DNA of 64,000 nucleotides from a phage, in sequence record PZ445554.1. One strand, given 5' to 3'. The notes beneath the pieces were generated by a model. That model saw only the letters and a list, made by a program, of their open reading frames with translations. It searched no databases and had not been told where the DNA came from. Made by a program: the position numbers and the translations under genes. Positions 32,502 to 37,171 of this stretch are shown one piece after another (positions within the stretch are counted from its first letter, which is position 1; every line of letters begins with the position of its first letter).

Positions 32502-32651
32502 TTACTGCATGACTGTGATAACTGTCATGATAACACGTTGAATTCCGAACGCAAGAAGACCTCCTGCTACGGCTGGAACAACGCCTAAACCCGTCAGTAA
32601 AATGCTACCAGATACTAATGCAGCGCTTGTAATACCAATGAATGGACTCAT
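32502..32651 (-). CDS. small hydrophobic membrane protein, 49 aa (absent from track)
   Basis: SD GAGGAAA; ATG overlaps gene 52 stop; MSPFIGITSAALVSGSILLTG... Confidence 0.35.
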   Translation of the reverse strand: MSPFIGITSAALVSGSILLTGLGVVPAVAGGLLAFGIQRVIMTVITVMQ

Positions 32652-33976: not shown

Positions 33977-33981
33977 AAATT

Positions 33982-34122
33982 TACCATACTAGTGAATGTA
34001 GTGCCATAATAACATCAGAAATGAAAAGCACGACTTGAATTAATCCGAACATTACTCCATAATATAGTGCTATTAATAAAATAGCAAGGGCTAATGAATA
34101 GCCCAAGATTTTCTTAATCATT
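33982..34122 (-). CDS. small membrane protein, about 46 aa (absent from track)
   Basis: Hydrophobic ORF immediately upstream of gene 52. Confidence 0.25.
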
Positions 34123-34269
34123 AGATAACAGCACAAATGTTAAATATGCACACATACCCTGGGCTAAAGCCTGCGAAAACACACTACTGGCATCGATACA
34201 GATAGTTAAAACACATGCTACTATCCAACAAATAAATGAAATAACTCCTAATAATTTTGCGATATTCAT
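34117..34269 (-). CDS. small membrane protein, about 50 aa (Ac-like size; absent from track)
   Basis: Strong SD GAGGAG; Cys-rich hydrophobic sequence. Confidence 0.35.
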
Positions 34270-34365
34270 AGTATTCTCCTCAACTATTTTTAAAACCTAA
34301 AATACCAAAGTTTTTAAGATTGTCACGATAGAACTGCATCACATGTTCGTTATGGAAATTACTCA

Positions 34366-34824
34366 TTAATATGCCTGCAAAACAAATTTAAAGTTATCAG
34401 CCAACATACGGTTCATTTCTTCAAGTGTTTGATACTCAGAATGATGATTACGAGTAAACGCCAAAGCTAACTGACCTTTACCAAATCCTGTCGTCAGAGG
34501 TTTCATCTTAGAAGCAGGCAGATAAAATACTGTGTATGGAACATTGTTATTTGCAATAGTACGCGCAAGCTGAGACCGACGCTGACGAATATGACTTAGA
34601 ACCGCACTGAATCCTTGCTTAGAACGCTGATTACCTACATAAAATCGTGCAGACACGCACGGATTACTAAATGGACGACCATCTAATTTACTCACTAAAA
34701 AGTAAAATCCAGGTTTAGATAAAATATCTTTATGCGGAGTTCCCAAAAACCACTCACCGCCCTTGATTGTACCAATAACAGTAGCGCCTGCATTATTCAG
34801 ATCAGTAACAGTCATATATTTCAT
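34366..34824 (-). CDS. ndd: Ndd-like nucleoid disruption protein (candidate)
   Basis: 152 aa from ATG at 34822-34824 with SD GAGGAAA (track start is GTG); T4 Ndd is 151 aa; position between 52 and denB. Confidence 0.4.
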
Positions 34825-34884
34825 ATTAATTTCCTCTAAATTATTTTCTACTCCAAGGCCGCATGGATACACACGGCCATTAAA

Positions 34885-35100
34885 TTAATCGTCGCAGTCG
34901 ACGCTCAATTCCCAGAATTCTTCTACGGTATAAGTTTCAGTATCATTTTCAATACAGAAACGTTCATTACTATTGTTTGCTAAAGTAGCATTAACTGTCA
35001 TTTTTTCGCTAGTGCTCTTAAGAGGTGAAATACGAATTAACTGATCACCGTTATCTAAACAAAAAATTTCACCAACTTTTACATCTTTAAAACTTTTCAT
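34885..35100 (-). CDS. hypothetical protein, 71 aa
   Basis: ORF track. Confidence 0.4.
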   Translation of the reverse strand: MKSFKDVKVGEIFCLDNGDQLIRISPLKSTSEKMTVNATLANNSNERFCIENDTETYTVEEFWELSVDCDD

Positions 35101-35215
35101 AATTCACCTCAAGGAGTATAAAATCCAAACGCAGTTGTTGACCATCCCATCCAATATGGAAAATTTGCACCAATGTAAAACATAAGAATATAAAACCAAC
35201 CGCTCAGCAAATTCA

Positions 35216-35413
35216 TCATTTTACACCATTCCAAATTGTTTCAACCACGGATTTTAAACCATTTTGATGAATATCAATTCCGACTACTGTCATCAAATAG
35301 ATTCCAACTACAACTGAACCTAAGGCAAAAATCAGCATGAAAATGAATAAAGCCGGAAAAATATTATCGAAAAACCATTCAATAAATGTAAAAGCACTGC
35401 GTTTACGCTTCAT
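35216..35413 (-). CDS. small membrane protein, about 65 aa
   Basis: ATG at 35411-35413 with SD GAGGAAAA (track TTG start rejected). Confidence 0.4.
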   Translation of the reverse strand: MKRKRSAFTFIEWFFDNIFPALFIFMLIFALGSVVVGIYLMTVVGIDIHQNGLKSVVETIWNGVK

Positions 35414-35420
35414 ATTTTCC

Positions 35421-35534
35421 TCACATAAATCCAAAGTAAACGTTTAATACATCAATCATTAAAACGATTGGGAATATACTCAAAACTACTAGTATTATAA
35501 CTACATTCCATATAGCTTTAATAATCTTTTTCAT
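35421..35534 (-). CDS. small membrane peptide, 37 aa
   Basis: ATG at 35532-35534 with SD GGAGG just downstream of a promoter cassette; the track's longer form translates the cassette itself. Confidence 0.3.
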   Translation of the reverse strand: MKKIIKAIWNVVIILVVLSIFPIVLMIDVLNVYFGFM

Positions 35535-35555
35535 TTTCTGTTCCTCCGTAGTTGA

Positions 35556-35593
35556 TAGGGTAATAGTACCACGGAAGAACAGTCTTGTAAACA
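35556..35593 (-). promoter_or_regulatory. T4 early-type promoter (cassette copy)
   Basis: GTTTAC-spacer-CGTGGTACTATTAC. Confidence 0.45.
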
Positions 35594-35776
35594 ACTTTTT
35601 AAAAATATTCGTAATAAATGTGAATACCAACTACTACCGCTGAAACCTGTGCAACCCACCACGCACAAGCAATAAGTACAGAATTCAAAATTTTCATAAT
35701 AACCTCATCACAAAAGTAAATGTTAAACAAATTAATGGAATACTAATTAACCAAACAAAACACCACCATAATGAAC

Positions 35777-36040
35777 TCATAGTTCAATCTCAGCGATTTT
35801 CATTTCATTATTGTTAATAGCATTTTTAAGACTATCCGAAAGAATTACATTCCAGTGGTCATTCATATGACCATTAACTAAGCGTGTAATTTCTTCGGGA
35901 GTTGAAAAATAAGGCGTATCAGACTCCCAATGCGATAATCCTAAGCGAGTATAAATCATGCCTTCATCATCGCTAGAATATTCAACTGACACAAACTCAT
36001 CAGTTATTTTATGTTTAGCGTAATAAAATTTAAATTTCAT
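35777..36040 (-). CDS. hypothetical protein, 87 aa
   Basis: ATG at 36038-36040 with SD GGAG downstream of promoter cassette 36068-36104; the track form starting at 36139 runs through the cassette. Confidence 0.4.
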   Translation of the reverse strand: MKFKFYYAKHKITDEFVSVEYSSDDEGMIYTRLGLSHWESDTPYFSTPEEITRLVNGHMNDHWNVILSDSLKNAINNNEMKIAEIEL

Positions 36041-36067
36041 TTTACTCTCCAAATCCGTATCAGTTGA

Positions 36068-36104
36068 TAGTTGTATAGTACCACGGTCCTTGTGGTATGT
36101 AAAC
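36068..36104 (-). promoter_or_regulatory. T4 early-type promoter (cassette copy)
   Basis: GTTTAC-spacer-CGTGGTACTATAC. Confidence 0.45.
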
Positions 36105-36120
36105 CATTTTGTGAAATTTT

Positions 36121-36678
36121 TTAAATGGAAAGATACCATCCGCTGTAGTTGCTTTTTCTTACAACCTTACGAAGGTCTTCTCTATCACCGATGAACTTCG
36201 GAGTGTATTGGATGACACCTGGATGAATTTCTTTAGTGTTGAATATAATTATACAGTCAGCGACTTGATGATTTAGAATGGGCCCTAGATTTATTCCAGA
36301 ACCATATGGATACTCTCCGCTGCATCCTGTTGTCACCGAAATCCAACGTGAGTCAGTTTGATGTGTCTTAACTTCTACACGAAGCCCGCAGTATCTTGGA
36401 TGCGCCAATACATCCCATGCATATGTGTACGGATCATCGACATCTTCTTGACCTTTGTTAACATACCCGCTCAGCCAATCTGCTACAAAAAACTCTGCGT
36501 ACACAGCGATACGGCATCTTTCGATAACTTCTGCCTTATCCTGATTTGGGTTTTGTTTTAAAGAGTATCTTGCAGTATCAACAATTTTGACCTTCATTTC
36601 ACTAGTCAAGTCACTGTTCGATAGGGTAAATGTCGGAATCTGAAATAGTCTCTGTAACCCCGGATTCGTTTTCTGCAT
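36121..36678 (-). CDS. denB: endonuclease IV
   Basis: 185 aa equals T4 EndoIV length; SD AAGGAAAG; position upstream of rIIB. Confidence 0.6.
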   Translation of the reverse strand: MQKTNPGLQRLFQIPTFTLSNSDLTSEMKVKIVDTARYSLKQNPNQDKAEVIERCRIAVYAEFFVADWLSGYVNKGQEDVDDPYTYAWDVLAHPRYCGLRVEVKTHQTDSRWISVTTGCSGEYPYGSGINLGPILNHQVADCIIIFNTKEIHPGVIQYTPKFIGDREDLRKVVRKSNYSGWYLSI

Positions 36679-36940
36679 TTAAACTTTCCTTTTTACCACT
36701 AAGATAAGCGTTATACACTTTAAGAGTACCATAGTAAATTCGATCATTTTCATCTAAAGAATTACGATCAAGTTCATCGAGATTCTTTTTGTCCATGACT
36801 ATAACATCATTGCAGTAAAGAACTCCAAGTTTTTCATGCCCAAACTCGAATTTATTGCAGTACACAATATTAGCGTAATGATTACCATGTAGAGAAATTT
36901 CTTTTATGTCGGTGTCACCGATATTCATACAATAAATCAT
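36611..36940 (-). CDS. hypothetical protein, 109 aa
   Basis: ORF track; overlaps denB N-terminus by 68 nt in another frame, so uncertain. Confidence 0.35.
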   Translation of the reverse strand: MIYCMNIGDTDIKEISLHGNHYANIVYCNKFEFGHEKLGVLYCNDVIVMDKKNLDELDRNSLDENDRIYYGTLKVYNAYLSGKKESLNAENESGVTETISDSDIYPIEQ

Positions 36941-36976: not shown

Positions 36977-37171
36977 TTATTTGAATTGTTCAATTCTTTT
37001 CTCTAAACAGTCAGCATAAGATTTCATTGAGATAAACTGCGAAAGTAACAGTTCTTGCTCAACTGCACTAACTGTTAGAAACTTTGCGCTTTCTAAAAAT
37101 TTGCTCAGTGCATTAATTTTGAGCATTAATTGATCGTATTCTTCTTTTACTCGTGCTTGATAACCTAACAT
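36977..37171 (-). CDS. hypothetical helical protein, 64 aa
   Basis: ORF track; flanked on both sides by identical stem-loops. Confidence 0.4.
   Translation of the reverse strand: MLGYQARVKEEYDQLMLKINALSKFLESAKFLTVSAVEQELLLSQFISMKSYADCLEKRIEQFK

Follow-up and report, generated by a model that had tools for sequence, protein, structure and literature searches.

The interval between ndd and denB of phage T4 carries ndd.2-ndd.6 (NC_000866 T4p270-T4p275), which the T4 record describes as 'uncharacterized 4-5 kDa proteins in ndd-denB intergenic region'. T4 also encodes Ac, Imm, Sp and RI, small early or accessory proteins that are anchored in the inner membrane, alter envelope behaviour and have genetic phenotypes of their own. 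In bacteria, small membrane-protein regulators such as AcrZ, MgrB, MgtS, KdpF and CydX act by helix-helix binding to a larger membrane protein. The hyperplastic region of T4-like phages contains variable small ORFs flanked by early promoters (TTTACW-N17-TAYWAT) in what are termed PeSL cassettes (PMC2839356, PMC4122927), and ndd.4/ndd.5 serve as an example of such a cassette in Comeau 2014 (PMC4122927).

The window analysed here, a stretch of 64,000 nucleotides, is a 100% DNA match to Shigella phage SHFML-26 (Tequatrovirus). Its minus strand between 35109 and 35780 contains five densely packed ORFs, the orthologues of T4 ndd.6 (28 aa), ndd.5 (32 aa), ndd.4 (37 aa), ndd.2a (65 aa) and ndd.2 (35 aa), which share their order, strand, overlaps and early promoter with T4 and are 95-100% identical to the T4 proteins in amino acid sequence. 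A first-pass annotation had pointed to a string of very short ORFs here, and their positions and starts are confirmed, except that the start placed near 35213 is at 35216 or 35219. These tiny ORFs are genuine conserved genes, annotated long ago in T4-type phages as ndd.2-ndd.6; the observation was right but not new, and the locus is not a new kind of system. The likeness to Ac, Imm, Sp and RI is one of size, timing and membrane anchoring (ac lies 1 kb off in the same deletable block), but none of the four is similar in sequence to ndd.2-ndd.6. The likeness to AcrZ and the other bacterial regulators, a length of 28-65 aa and a single predicted transmembrane helix, is purely analogical. The features of the locus, in the direction of transcription, are as follows.

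36075-36104, minus strand: early promoter A, GTTTACATACCACAAGGACCGTGGTACTAT, a perfect match to GTTTAC-N14-GTGGTAYWAT, ahead of x87
35777-36040, minus strand: x87, first gene of operon A, 87 aa, soluble, acidic and not hydrophobic; phrog_2390
35694-35780, minus strand: ndd.6 orthologue, 28 aa, MSSLWWCFVWLISIPLICLTFTFVMRLL; phrog_8851, E=3e-17
35599-35697, minus strand: ndd.5 orthologue, 32 aa, MKILNSVLIACAWWVAQVSAVVVGIHIYYEYF, one moderately hydrophobic helix; phrog_5011, E=4e-26
35563-35592, minus strand: early promoter B, GTTTACAAGACTGTTCTTCCGTGGTACTAT, a perfect consensus match also found by the sigma-70 scan, ahead of ndd.4
35421-35534, minus strand: ndd.4 orthologue, 37 aa, MKKIIKAIWNVVIILVVLSIFPIVLMIDVLNVYFGFM; phrog_3098, E=4e-21
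35216-35413, minus strand: ndd.2a orthologue, one intact 65-aa gene, Pfam DUF7248 (PF23906); phrog_2401
35109-35216, minus strand: ndd.2 orthologue, MNLLSGWFYILMFYIGANFPYWMGWSTTAFGFYTP, 35 aa (36 aa from 35219); phrog_4135, E=2e-24
34885-35100, minus strand: ndd.1 orthologue, last gene of operon B, 71 aa, soluble and acidic; dN/dS 0.08
34847-34903, minus strand: hairpins that resemble terminators, where operon B ends ahead of ndd; CGTCGACTGCGACG spans the ndd.1 stop and GGCCG...CGGCC lies in the spacer

On the minus strand at 35109-35780, 89% of the sequence lies in ATG-initiated ORFs of at least 28 aa, against 17% on the plus strand; in 2000 dinucleotide shuffles the mean coverage was 28% and the maximum 84%, so that 0/2000 reach the observed value. 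Variable sites pooled by codon position number 22/11/55 (chi-square p=1.7e-8), and dN/dS is 0.10 for ndd.6, 0.10 for ndd.5, 0.07 for ndd.2a and 0.13 for ndd.2, compared to 0.09, 0.08 and 0.03 for the controls ndd, ndd.1 and denB. All five have full-length PHROG matches (8851, 5011, 3098, 2401 and 4135; E from 3e-17 to 4e-29), and diverged syntenic homologues lie between denB and ndd in Gaprivervirus VR26, Edwardsiella phage PEi20, Serratia phage CHI14, Dhakavirus dhabil, Mosigvirus RB69, Gelderlandvirus CGG4-1 and a metagenomic contig. The five genes are stable across approximately 500 Tequatrovirus genomes. Conservation in relatives, on which the first-pass annotation had staked its reading, is thus extensive, each ORF being found in about 400-600 phage genomes as well as in other genera. 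The codon-position bias, the low dN/dS and the homologues in other genera lead us to regard the five ORFs as coding and under purifying selection. The case for ndd.4 differs, as its dN/dS of 0.91 is uninformative because it derives from 8 variable sites only, and there is no synonymous excess within Tequatrovirus; its assignment as coding would depend on the cross-genus homologues. We considered unusual constraint at the nucleotide level for ndd.4, where pi is low (approximately 0.015), but denB and ac have equal troughs. Damaged natural alleles do occur: ndd.2a of SV76 has a nonsense codon, SP21535 has lost 12 nt at the ndd.2a/ndd.2 junction, one IMG/VR contig is frameshifted at the end of ndd.6, and Sf25 has ndd.4 fused to ndd.2a (ndd.4::ndd.2a). 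The peptides are not paralogues of one another: Smith-Waterman comparison against shuffles gave nothing above z = 2.1, and we treat them as five unrelated families. Sequence searches of Pfam, NCBIfam and the PDB returned no homology to a protein of known function, DUF7248 being the sole Pfam/NCBIfam hit.

The early-promoter pattern scanned, GTTTAC-N14-GTGGTACTAT, has 15 matches in the whole window against 0.17 expected. Promoter A is recovered by the sigma-70 scan too, with an extended -10 TG, and is followed by a 5' leader with CTATCAACT...GGAG; it drives x87-ndd.6-ndd.5. Promoter B begins 6 nt past the ndd.5 stop, and its leader ends in the GGAGG Shine-Dalgarno of ndd.4. The sites homologous to both carry early-promoter annotation in phage SA20RB. 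The two promoters set two operons, x87-ndd.6-ndd.5 and ndd.4-ndd.2a-ndd.2-ndd.1. The proposal that each ORF not chained to its neighbour has its own promoter cassette therefore survives in part: there are two perfect early promoters, one before ndd.4 and one before x87 and so ahead of ndd.6 and ndd.5, but not one per ORF. The early-promoter consensus of PeSL cassettes is present, but no convincing stem-loop adjoins promoter A or B, a weak negative given that the published T4/PST consensus is loose; the only hairpins found by the scan are at 34646-34661 and 34890-34903. The interval 34.2-36.8 kb contains no late promoter (TATAAATA), and the ndd-denB interval showed no MotA promoter.

The chaining of the ORFs by stop/start signals was seen correctly. 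ATGA overlaps join x87 to ndd.6 (35777-35780), ndd.6 to ndd.5 (35694-35697) and ndd.2a to ndd.2 (35216-35219), and the gaps from ndd.4 to ndd.2a (7 nt) and from ndd.2 to ndd.1 (8 nt) have the stop embedded in the GAGG Shine-Dalgarno of the next gene. A hairpin with the ndd.6 AUG in its loop was considered as a coupling device and rejected: at -10.2 kcal/mol it does not outperform shuffles (z = -1.17), substitutions among 15 variants are few, mostly compatible with it and never compensatory, and it is missing in RB69 and Gelderlandvirus. At the end of operon B, the hairpin at 34890-34903 was found by the scan, and the SA20RB annotation lists the homologue of the spacer hairpin as a rho-independent terminator; the window coordinates of the spacer hairpin were read from the sequence and the mapped SA20RB annotation and carry no tool score. 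It is uncertain that these hairpins act as terminators because their T-tracts are weak.

The first gene of operon B, ndd.4, has a basic N-terminus and one transmembrane helix, predicted to be N-in. It is present in 597 records; approximately 100 of these come from beyond Tequatrovirus, with 58-80% identity, and VR26, PEi20, dhabil and L034 have syntenic homologues. In T4, the gene is annotated from an upstream ATG that is absent in the window phage. A 40-aa ORF of Serratia CHI14 was examined as a further homologue and is a positional analogue only (BLASTP E = 13).

The ndd.2a product is a typical member of DUF7248 (PHROG 2401), a family without known function, and matches it end to end: it scores 68.1 bits against a PF23906 gathering cut-off of 27 and covers model positions 4-57 of 58. 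A basic N-terminus is followed by a predicted transmembrane helix at about residues 18-46 and then by an acidic helix, placed outside the cytoplasm, that carries the motif NGLKSVVETIWNG, in the family C-terminal GLKSVVExIW(N/E)G. The AF2 model is all-helical (helices 3-17 and 19-64, pLDDT 80.6). The frame is intact in 497/500 records. Across 22 diverse members of the family alignment, G52, K54, W61 and G63 are invariant; DUF7248 keeps the predicted periplasm-facing motif, not the transmembrane sequence. The family was seen through an exhaustive HMMER search; a word-based protein search with the 65-aa protein yielded 8 clusters only. The T4 reference differs from the window by a 1-nt deletion in codon 2 of ndd.2a, which yields an artefactual 'ndd.3' and a shortened 'ndd.2a'. 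Judging from this alignment, we regard the two T4 entries as a single 65-aa DUF7248 gene that is frameshifted in the reference sequence. The T4 'ndd.3' frame, a PHROG singleton (PMC11879866 supplement), has no counterpart in the window phage. We also considered whether Ndd always requires DUF7248 as its membrane partner; the two genes adjoin in several genera, but this fails as a general rule in Dhakavirus, Mosigvirus and Gelderlandvirus, which have ndd without DUF7248.

The first ATG of ndd.2 (35219) is ATA in 7/22 relatives, and the second, at 35216, is therefore the likely start. The peptide is aromatic-rich and without a charged residue, for which reason we assign it a weaker transmembrane or interfacial helix on sequence grounds. 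It is found in 519 records, including 25 Klebsiella phages at <60% identity, and has homologues in PEi20 and L034. The ndd.1 gene starts 8 nt past the ndd.2 stop, with GAGGTG as its Shine-Dalgarno.

In operon A, x87 lies between denB and ndd.6 in the window phage and was lost from T4, where pairwise alignment shows a gap of approximately 237 nt. The slot behind promoter A differs among phages, being empty or holding x87, a divergent x87, a 68-aa gene or both. The 24 nt directly upstream of ndd.6 are kept as an 8-codon mini-ORF where x87 is deleted (T4) or replaced (RB6, SV76, LYE-01). The ndd.6 peptide (495 phage records) has one transmembrane helix, likely N-out/C-in because its sole charge is R26; 11 residues are invariant between it and the RB69 and Gelderlandvirus homologues, and SIPxIC is kept. 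The ndd.5 gene, with a GAGG Shine-Dalgarno 7 nt upstream, occurs in at least 408 records, and its variable sites by codon position are 1/1/9.

The hydrophobic character claimed for these ORFs holds. Their KD19 maxima are 2.2-3.1, and the summed insertion free energy is negative for ndd.2a, ndd.4 and ndd.6, while ndd.2 is weakly hydrophobic (+4.2). By hydropathy, and by the AF2 model for the 65-aa protein, each peptide would essentially be a single hydrophobic, membrane-spanning helix. Labels derived from T4 annotation place these products in the outer membrane or periplasm. We reject this, since the 28-37 aa peptides are almost wholly one hydrophobic helix and leave no space for a signal peptide and a mature part, and in its model the 65-aa protein forms one continuous helix whose N-terminus would serve as an uncleaved anchor.

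In T4, the transcripts of ndd.2-ndd.6 are classed as 'early' (PMC9697503 Table S2). The time-course proteome of the same study detected the ndd.1 protein early by mass spectrometry but no ndd.2-ndd.6 peptide (Class_P = NA; PMC9697503), which is weak evidence against translation because tiny hydrophobic peptides are poor targets for shotgun mass spectrometry. Neither ndd.2a nor ribosome profiling of T4 yielded anything specific in literature searches. CRISPRi-ART scores all ndd.x genes as 'Not Fit', their knock-down having no fitness effect in the laboratory host (PMC11879866). Host takeover and superinfection exclusion, which the first-pass annotation had suggested, would be candidate roles only, since the published record amounts to early transcripts, no mass-spectrometry signal and no effect on laboratory fitness. 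The sa-delta-9 deletion is viable with an approximately 50% burst and loses the stimulation of phospholipid and phosphatidylglycerol synthesis, and the overlapping rII-delta-DD2 deletion likewise loses stimulation of phosphatidylglycerol synthesis (PMC6071114). This loss is the sole phenotype mapped to the interval and is known from large deletions. The deletion concerned is 3.4 kb and takes ndd, denB, ac, stp, 52.1 and ndd.1 too; its phenotype does not point to the ndd.2-ndd.6 peptides in particular.

On balance, and with some reserve, we favour the view that the cluster encodes early accessory inner-membrane micro-proteins arranged in two operons. Host sigma-70 RNA polymerase would transcribe both in the first minutes of infection from the T4-type early promoters, and ribosomes would move from cistron to cistron via the ATGA/TGATG overlaps or across the 7-8 nt gaps in which the stop lies inside the next Shine-Dalgarno. 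The peptides would insert in the host inner membrane, Ndd.2a being N-in and exposing its conserved acidic helix, GLKSVVExIWNG, to the periplasm. That the five ORFs are real translated membrane peptides is very probable. We suggest that they most likely serve as accessory, host-conditional 'monkey-wrench' factors that bind and modulate inner-membrane proteins of the host or of a prophage, with helix-helix binding as the proposed mode, although we see the arguments for binding to membrane proteins as evenly balanced. Envelope and phospholipid metabolism would be the leading candidate process because deletions spanning the interval abolish the T4-induced stimulation of phosphatidylglycerol synthesis; we think it rather unlikely, however, that the peptides account for this phenotype. 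It is a long shot that the long-sought T4 factor behind the reprogramming of host phospholipid synthesis belongs to the conserved operon-B trio of ndd.4, DUF7248/ndd.2a and ndd.2, one or more of which would bind an inner-membrane protein directly. Such a factor would raise phosphatidylglycerol and lower phosphatidylethanolamine; its target would be an inner-membrane protein of lipid synthesis or envelope stress, contacted by the invariant periplasmic GLK...W.G helix of DUF7248.

Alternatively, the peptides could be directed at counter-defence or exclusion, neutralising membrane-embedded abortive-infection and exclusion systems of the host or of a prophage or stopping superinfecting phage at the envelope, as T4 Imm, Sp and rII do, and would therefore be useful only on particular hosts. 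This agrees with genes that can be spared on a laboratory host but are held under purifying selection in nature, and with their patchy modular spread among genera in a hyperplastic early region near rIIB, denB, stp and ndd, a locus cited as an example of promoter-cassette-mediated gene shuffling (PMC4122927). The conservation in DUF7248 of a periplasm-facing motif over the transmembrane sequence also fits recognition of an envelope partner. However, Pfam, NCBIfam and PDB searches linked the peptides neither to Imm, Sp or RI nor to a known anti-defence family, the literature examined contains no host-range or exclusion phenotype for the interval, and sequence data alone do not separate an exclusion role from the accessory role that we favour. 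We regard exclusion as a real if minority possibility. Membrane-damaging toxins or holins (Hok, TisB or Ibs type), which would depolarise or permeabilise the inner membrane during host shut-off, are quite improbable. The size of 28-37 aa and the single hydrophobic helix do resemble type I toxins, and many small T4 immediate-early genes are host-lethal once cloned (PMC6071114). Against this, the peptides would be made at the onset of infection, while the phage needs an energised membrane; the operons have early transcripts in T4, no late promoter and denB, ndd and stp, not lysis genes, as neighbours. No antisense RNA or Rfam element was found (Rfam, which holds curated families only, gave no match on either strand of the interval), which is no proof of absence, and the scan picked out no strong promoter on the plus strand. 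Five unrelated families keep specific residues (SIPxIC in ndd.6, GLK...W.G in DUF7248), which points to specific contacts and not to generic membrane damage.

Two further readings deny the peptides any function. In one, the ORFs would form a translational relay that only passes ribosomes to ndd.1 and ndd. Stop/start overlaps run all along the cluster, and the 8-codon mini-ORF before ndd.6 survives the loss or replacement of x87, so that coupling itself appears to be preserved. A relay would leave the amino acid sequence free, though, whereas dN/dS is approximately 0.1, homologues at 35-60% identity in other genera keep the hydrophobic helices and motifs, and ndd.1 and ndd.4 each possess a good Shine-Dalgarno sequence; we therefore consider this very unlikely. 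The other, that these are chance ORFs in a non-coding ndd-denB spacer, could appeal to the shortness of each ORF and to the proteome study without their peptides. It is barely credible: the third-position excess of variation and the tiling test effectively refute it, and the frames are intact in hundreds of genomes with homologues across genera.

The cluster is a clean example of the uncharacterised immediate-early accessory genes of T4. Protein-level selection, together with two modules that differ in phylogenetic spread, narrows the candidates for a decades-old unexplained phenotype, the phage stimulation of phosphatidylglycerol synthesis that is lost in sa-delta-9 and rII-delta-DD2.

Small hydrophobic ORFs had also been noted around gene 52, and these too are real. 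Together with stp, the T4 orthologues there are as follows.

34280-34366, minus strand: stp, 28 aa, soluble
34114-34269, minus strand: ac, 51 aa, hydrophobic
33981-34121, minus strand: 52.1, 46 aa, DUF7396, hydrophobic
32502-32651, minus strand: motA.1, 49 aa, Gly/Ala-rich, hydrophobic; its start overlaps the gene 52 stop

The remark that such ORFs are easily missed is true of some records and not of others. The SHFML-26 RefSeq record is without ndd.4, ndd.5, ndd.6, stp, ac and 52.1, and the RB69 record is without its ndd.6 homologue, but T4 annotates ndd.2-ndd.6, all five have PHROG families and the longest has a Pfam entry. The RefSeq label 'transcriptional regulator' for motA.1 found no support in this analysis and should be dropped, as should 'outer membrane protein' and 'naphthalene dioxygenase'. 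We suggest that T4 ndd.3 and ndd.2a be merged, that ndd.4, ndd.5 and ndd.6 be added to SHFML-26 and that ndd.6 be added to RB69.

The feature is the T4 ndd.2-ndd.6 cluster, which is already known; its members belong to known, uncharacterised families, and the cluster is not a novel type of system. Positions 34800-36200 match Shigella phage SHFML-26 (NC_031011, genus Tequatrovirus) with 100% identity, and approximately 500 further T4-like genomes with 90-99%. The T4 reference annotation lists ndd.6, ndd.5, ndd.4, ndd.3, ndd.2a, ndd.2, and ndd.1 between denB and ndd, and the cluster was therefore named by T4 biologists long since, though it is uncharacterised. It would gain in importance only with the demonstration that a peptide of the cluster is the T4 phospholipid-reprogramming factor or a new counter-defence. 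Read on the minus strand, the five small ORFs (ndd.6 to ndd.2) lie within a few bases of the positions given in the first-pass annotation; they are listed here with their two neighbours:

35777-36040, minus strand: x87, soluble product of 87 aa, upstream of ndd.6
35694-35780, minus strand: ndd.6, 28 aa
35599-35697, minus strand: ndd.5, 32 aa
35421-35534, minus strand: ndd.4, 37 aa
35216-35413, minus strand: ndd.2a, 65-aa ORF
35109-35216 or 35219, minus strand: ndd.2, 35 or 36 aa
34885-35100, minus strand: ndd.1, downstream of ndd.2

The same annotation had described the five ORFs as chained by ATGA overlaps or each preceded by its own promoter. Such overlaps are found at three junctions (x87/ndd.6, ndd.6/ndd.5, and ndd.2a/ndd.2), and at ndd.4/ndd.2a and ndd.2/ndd.1 there are gaps of 7-8 nt, with the stop codon inside the GAGG Shine-Dalgarno of the next gene; the promoter claim was overstated, as there are two here. 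Both agree at every position with the early-promoter consensus of T4, GTTTAC-N14-GTGGTACTAT, and lie at 36075-36104 (5' of x87) and 35563-35592 (5' of ndd.4); the whole 64-kb window holds 15 matches, where 0.17 are expected. Searches of the interval for late promoters (TATAAATA), MotA-box promoters, and Rfam families gave no match, and weak terminator-like hairpins lie 3' of ndd.1. Taken with the junctions, the promoters divide the genes between an early operon A (x87-ndd.6-ndd.5) and an early operon B (ndd.4-ndd.2a-ndd.2-ndd.1).

The proposal that the ORFs are coding holds. On the minus strand of 35109-35780, 89% of the sequence lies in ORFs of 28 aa or longer, a value reached by none of 2000 dinucleotide shuffles (mean 28%, maximum 84%). 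Our alignment of the locus comprised 22 Tequatrovirus sequences, six of them IMG/VR contigs and the others GenBank records picked over the identity range. In their annotated frames, the five small ORFs pooled have 22, 11, and 55 variable sites at the first, second, and third codon positions (chi-square p = 1.7e-8). The dN/dS values (Nei-Gojobori) are 0.10 (ndd.6), 0.10 (ndd.5), 0.07 (ndd.2a), and 0.13 (ndd.2), matching those of two established genes, ndd (0.09) and ndd.1 (0.08); when the frame is shifted, the ratio is close to 1 or higher. The value for ndd.4 (0.91) is uninformative, resting on eight variable sites only, and synonymous differences are scarce in this gene (pS 0.025 versus 0.15-0.22 in its neighbours). 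Similar troughs of diversity occur in denB and ac, so that the low diversity of ndd.4 is unexceptional for the locus and perhaps due to chance or recent recombinational homogenisation. All five peptides match PHROG families end to end, and the 65-aa protein matches Pfam DUF7248 with 68 bits (cut-off 27).

The membrane character assigned to the peptides is likewise supported. The 19-residue Kyte-Doolittle maxima of ndd.5, ndd.6, ndd.2a, and ndd.4 are 2.2-3.1, and the summed biological-scale insertion energy is negative for ndd.2a, ndd.4, and ndd.6. The ndd.2 product, aromatic-rich and without a charged residue, has only weak hydrophobicity, and hydropathy places x87, ndd.1, and stp among soluble proteins. 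In the AlphaFold2 model of the 65-aa protein (pLDDT 80.6), residues 3-17 and 19-64 are helical; the helix is interrupted at residue 18, shortly before Pro20. We infer that the peptides are single-pass inner-membrane micro-proteins, for which charge distribution predicts an N-in topology in ndd.4, ndd.5, and ndd.2a and N-out in ndd.6. Two inherited annotations, "outer membrane protein" and "periplasmic protein", do not suit peptides made up almost wholly of one hydrophobic helix. The five are not related to one another, and searches of NCBIfam and PDB yielded no relatives.

Conservation in relatives, on which the first-pass reading depended, is clearly present, with homologues in hundreds of records and in other genera. 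Searching 50,697 phage records by tblastn, we found matches in 495 (ndd.6), at least 408 (ndd.5, where low-complexity masking is limiting), 597 (ndd.4), 500 (ndd.2a), and 519 (ndd.2). Outside Tequatrovirus, the genes behave as two modules, A and B. RB69 (Mosigvirus) has no module B gene; from module A it carries x87, an unannotated 28-aa ndd.6 homologue (NC_004928, locus L036 3880-3966, minus strand, MSSKMWIGIWLLSIPMICIIFSIVLRYL) overlapping the RB69ORF270c stop through the same ATGA, and then a 36-aa hydrophobic ORF, the positional analogue of ndd.5. Salmonella phage CGG4-1 (Gelderlandvirus) retains the ndd.6 homologue alone. Across the three genera, M1, S2, S3, W6, W10, I14, P15, I17, C18, F21, and L28 of ndd.6 are conserved. 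Module B is represented in Gaprivervirus VR26 (ndd.4, DUF7248, ndd.1), Edwardsiella phage PEi20 (ndd.4, ndd.2, DUF7248), Serratia phage CHI14 (DUF7248 and a 40-aa hydrophobic ORF), Dhakavirus dhabil (ndd.4, ndd.1), and a 909-bp metagenomic contig (denB-ndd.4-DUF7248-ndd.2-ndd). Comeau et al. used ndd.4/ndd.5 as an example of shuffling by early-promoter cassettes (PMC4122927), their Fig. 6A showing the T4 genes exchanged for ORF268/269 in Yersinia phage PST. This sits oddly with the 98.3% identity of PST to the window over the whole 691-nt block, and the discrepancy may be one of annotation, not gene content.

Gene content is hypervariable in the slot that separates early promoter A from ndd.6 (35777-36040 in the window and, among the compared relatives, loci L002, L013, L017, L018, L020, L023, L026, L012, and L025). 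The slot is empty in T4, and in other phages it contains x87, an x87 allele of approximately 50% identity, a 68-aa gene that is unrelated, or the two genes together. T4 has lost x87 by a deletion of approximately 237 nt between short repeats (AAATGAAA), leaving behind the x87 Shine-Dalgarno an 8-codon mini-ORF (MKIAEIEL) that still overlaps the ndd.6 start; RB6, SV76, and LYE-01, with the 68-aa gene in the slot, keep the identical mini-ORF. These last 24 nt, ending in ATGA, precede ndd.6 in every slot variant. Since ndd.6 lacks a good Shine-Dalgarno of its own, it would be entered by translational hand-over, and this appears to have been preserved through three rearrangements. A hairpin as the explanation of this preservation was tested and found unsupported.

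In the T4 reference (NC_000866/AF158101), and there alone, codon 2 of the 65-aa gene is one nucleotide short, ATGAA-CGT versus ATGAAGCGT (window 35396-35413; T4 locus L002 4049-4129), which breaks the gene up into an artefactual "ndd.3" and an N-terminally truncated "ndd.2a". "ndd.3" is an out-of-frame product and a PHROG singleton. The 65-aa frame is intact in T4 "wild" (KJ477684), in other T4 records, and in 497 of 500 records overall; the KRT47 annotation had already remarked on the "26-residue N-terminal extension". An exhaustive HMMER search for DUF7248 gave 27 cluster representatives, of 47-76 aa except for four long proteins, a 25-aa fragment, and a fusion in Shigella phage Sf25. The transmembrane sequence is variable among the 22 members aligned, all of which keep G52, K54, W61, and G63 in the motif GLKSVVExIW(N/E)G. 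The long proteins (P0012, P0016, P0020, and P0025; 820-976 aa) have 5-10 tandem "ETVWNGIKSFF"-type repeats matching the C-terminal motif (ETIWNGVK); from the repeat pattern we take them to be candidate tape-measure-like proteins, and the shared motif is probably a convergent amphipathic helix. Sf25 gp120 (P0007) joins in frame the N-terminal transmembrane part of ndd.4 and the C-terminal part of ndd.2a, a natural fusion that the phage evidently tolerates.

Our analysis and published data together show five conserved, selected, hydrophobic micro-ORFs that lie behind early promoters, are dispensable in the laboratory, and are modular in distribution. In a T4 dual-omics time course, transcripts of ndd.2, 2a, 3, 4, 5, and 6 are "early"; the ndd.2-ndd.6 proteins are "NA" (undetected), and Ndd and Ndd.1 were detected early (PMC9697503 Table S2). 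Genome-wide CRISPRi-ART scored all ndd.x genes and denB as "Not Fit", that is, dispensable in the laboratory host (PMC11879866). Coupled ribosomes would translate the peptides within the first minutes of infection; the peptides would then insert in the inner membrane and, by analogy with bacterial small membrane proteins, may act by binding larger membrane proteins of the host or of a prophage.

The sole mapped phenotype, that of multi-gene deletions, points to phospholipid and envelope metabolism. The sa-delta-9 deletion (approximately 3.4 kb, 52.1 through denB, including ndd.1-ndd.6) leaves about 50% of wild-type yield and abolishes the stimulation of phospholipid synthesis after infection, the partially overlapping rII-delta-DD2 loses the specific stimulation of phosphatidylglycerol, and Kutter et al. 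noted several predicted membrane proteins encoded within the deleted block (PMC6071114). Counter-defence or exclusion is a possibility of about the same plausibility, and it cannot be told from a phospholipid or envelope role by sequence data. We regard it as less likely that the peptides are generic membrane toxins, that they are mere translational relays, or that the ORFs arose by chance.

Annotation of the region is uneven. The SHFML-26 RefSeq record omits ndd.4, ndd.5, ndd.6, stp, ac, and 52.1, and it uses a TTG further upstream as the start of ndd.2. Nonsense product names for small ORFs have propagated through GenBank and RefSeq (loci L012, L024, and L016; window 32502-32651). For example, ndd and ndd.4 are called "naphthalene 1,2-dioxygenase", ndd.2 is called "chaperone for long tail fiber formation", a note on ndd.2a cites "dNMP kinase", and motA.1 (32502-32651) is called "transcriptional regulator". 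Between denB.1 and denB, a 109-aa ORF (36611-36940, minus strand; Pfam DUF7418, E=4.5e-36) extends over the initial 68 nt of denB, which it reads in a different frame; T4 lacks this ORF, SHFML-26 RefSeq leaves it unannotated, and in some relatives denB is shortened, making room for it. The 64-aa denB.1 (36977-37171, minus strand) matches PF21825, named "crAss001_48 related protein" in the Pfam copy and "Sequestin" in a precomputed table, a possible functional lead for this uncharacterised early gene. Stp (34280-34366, minus strand) is the 28-aa variant also present in T6, near-identical to the SV76 form, which is one residue shorter; the usual T4 form has 26 aa and ends in ...NLKTKGVFGRQ, and there are therefore at least two C-terminal alleles of the PrrC-activating peptide.
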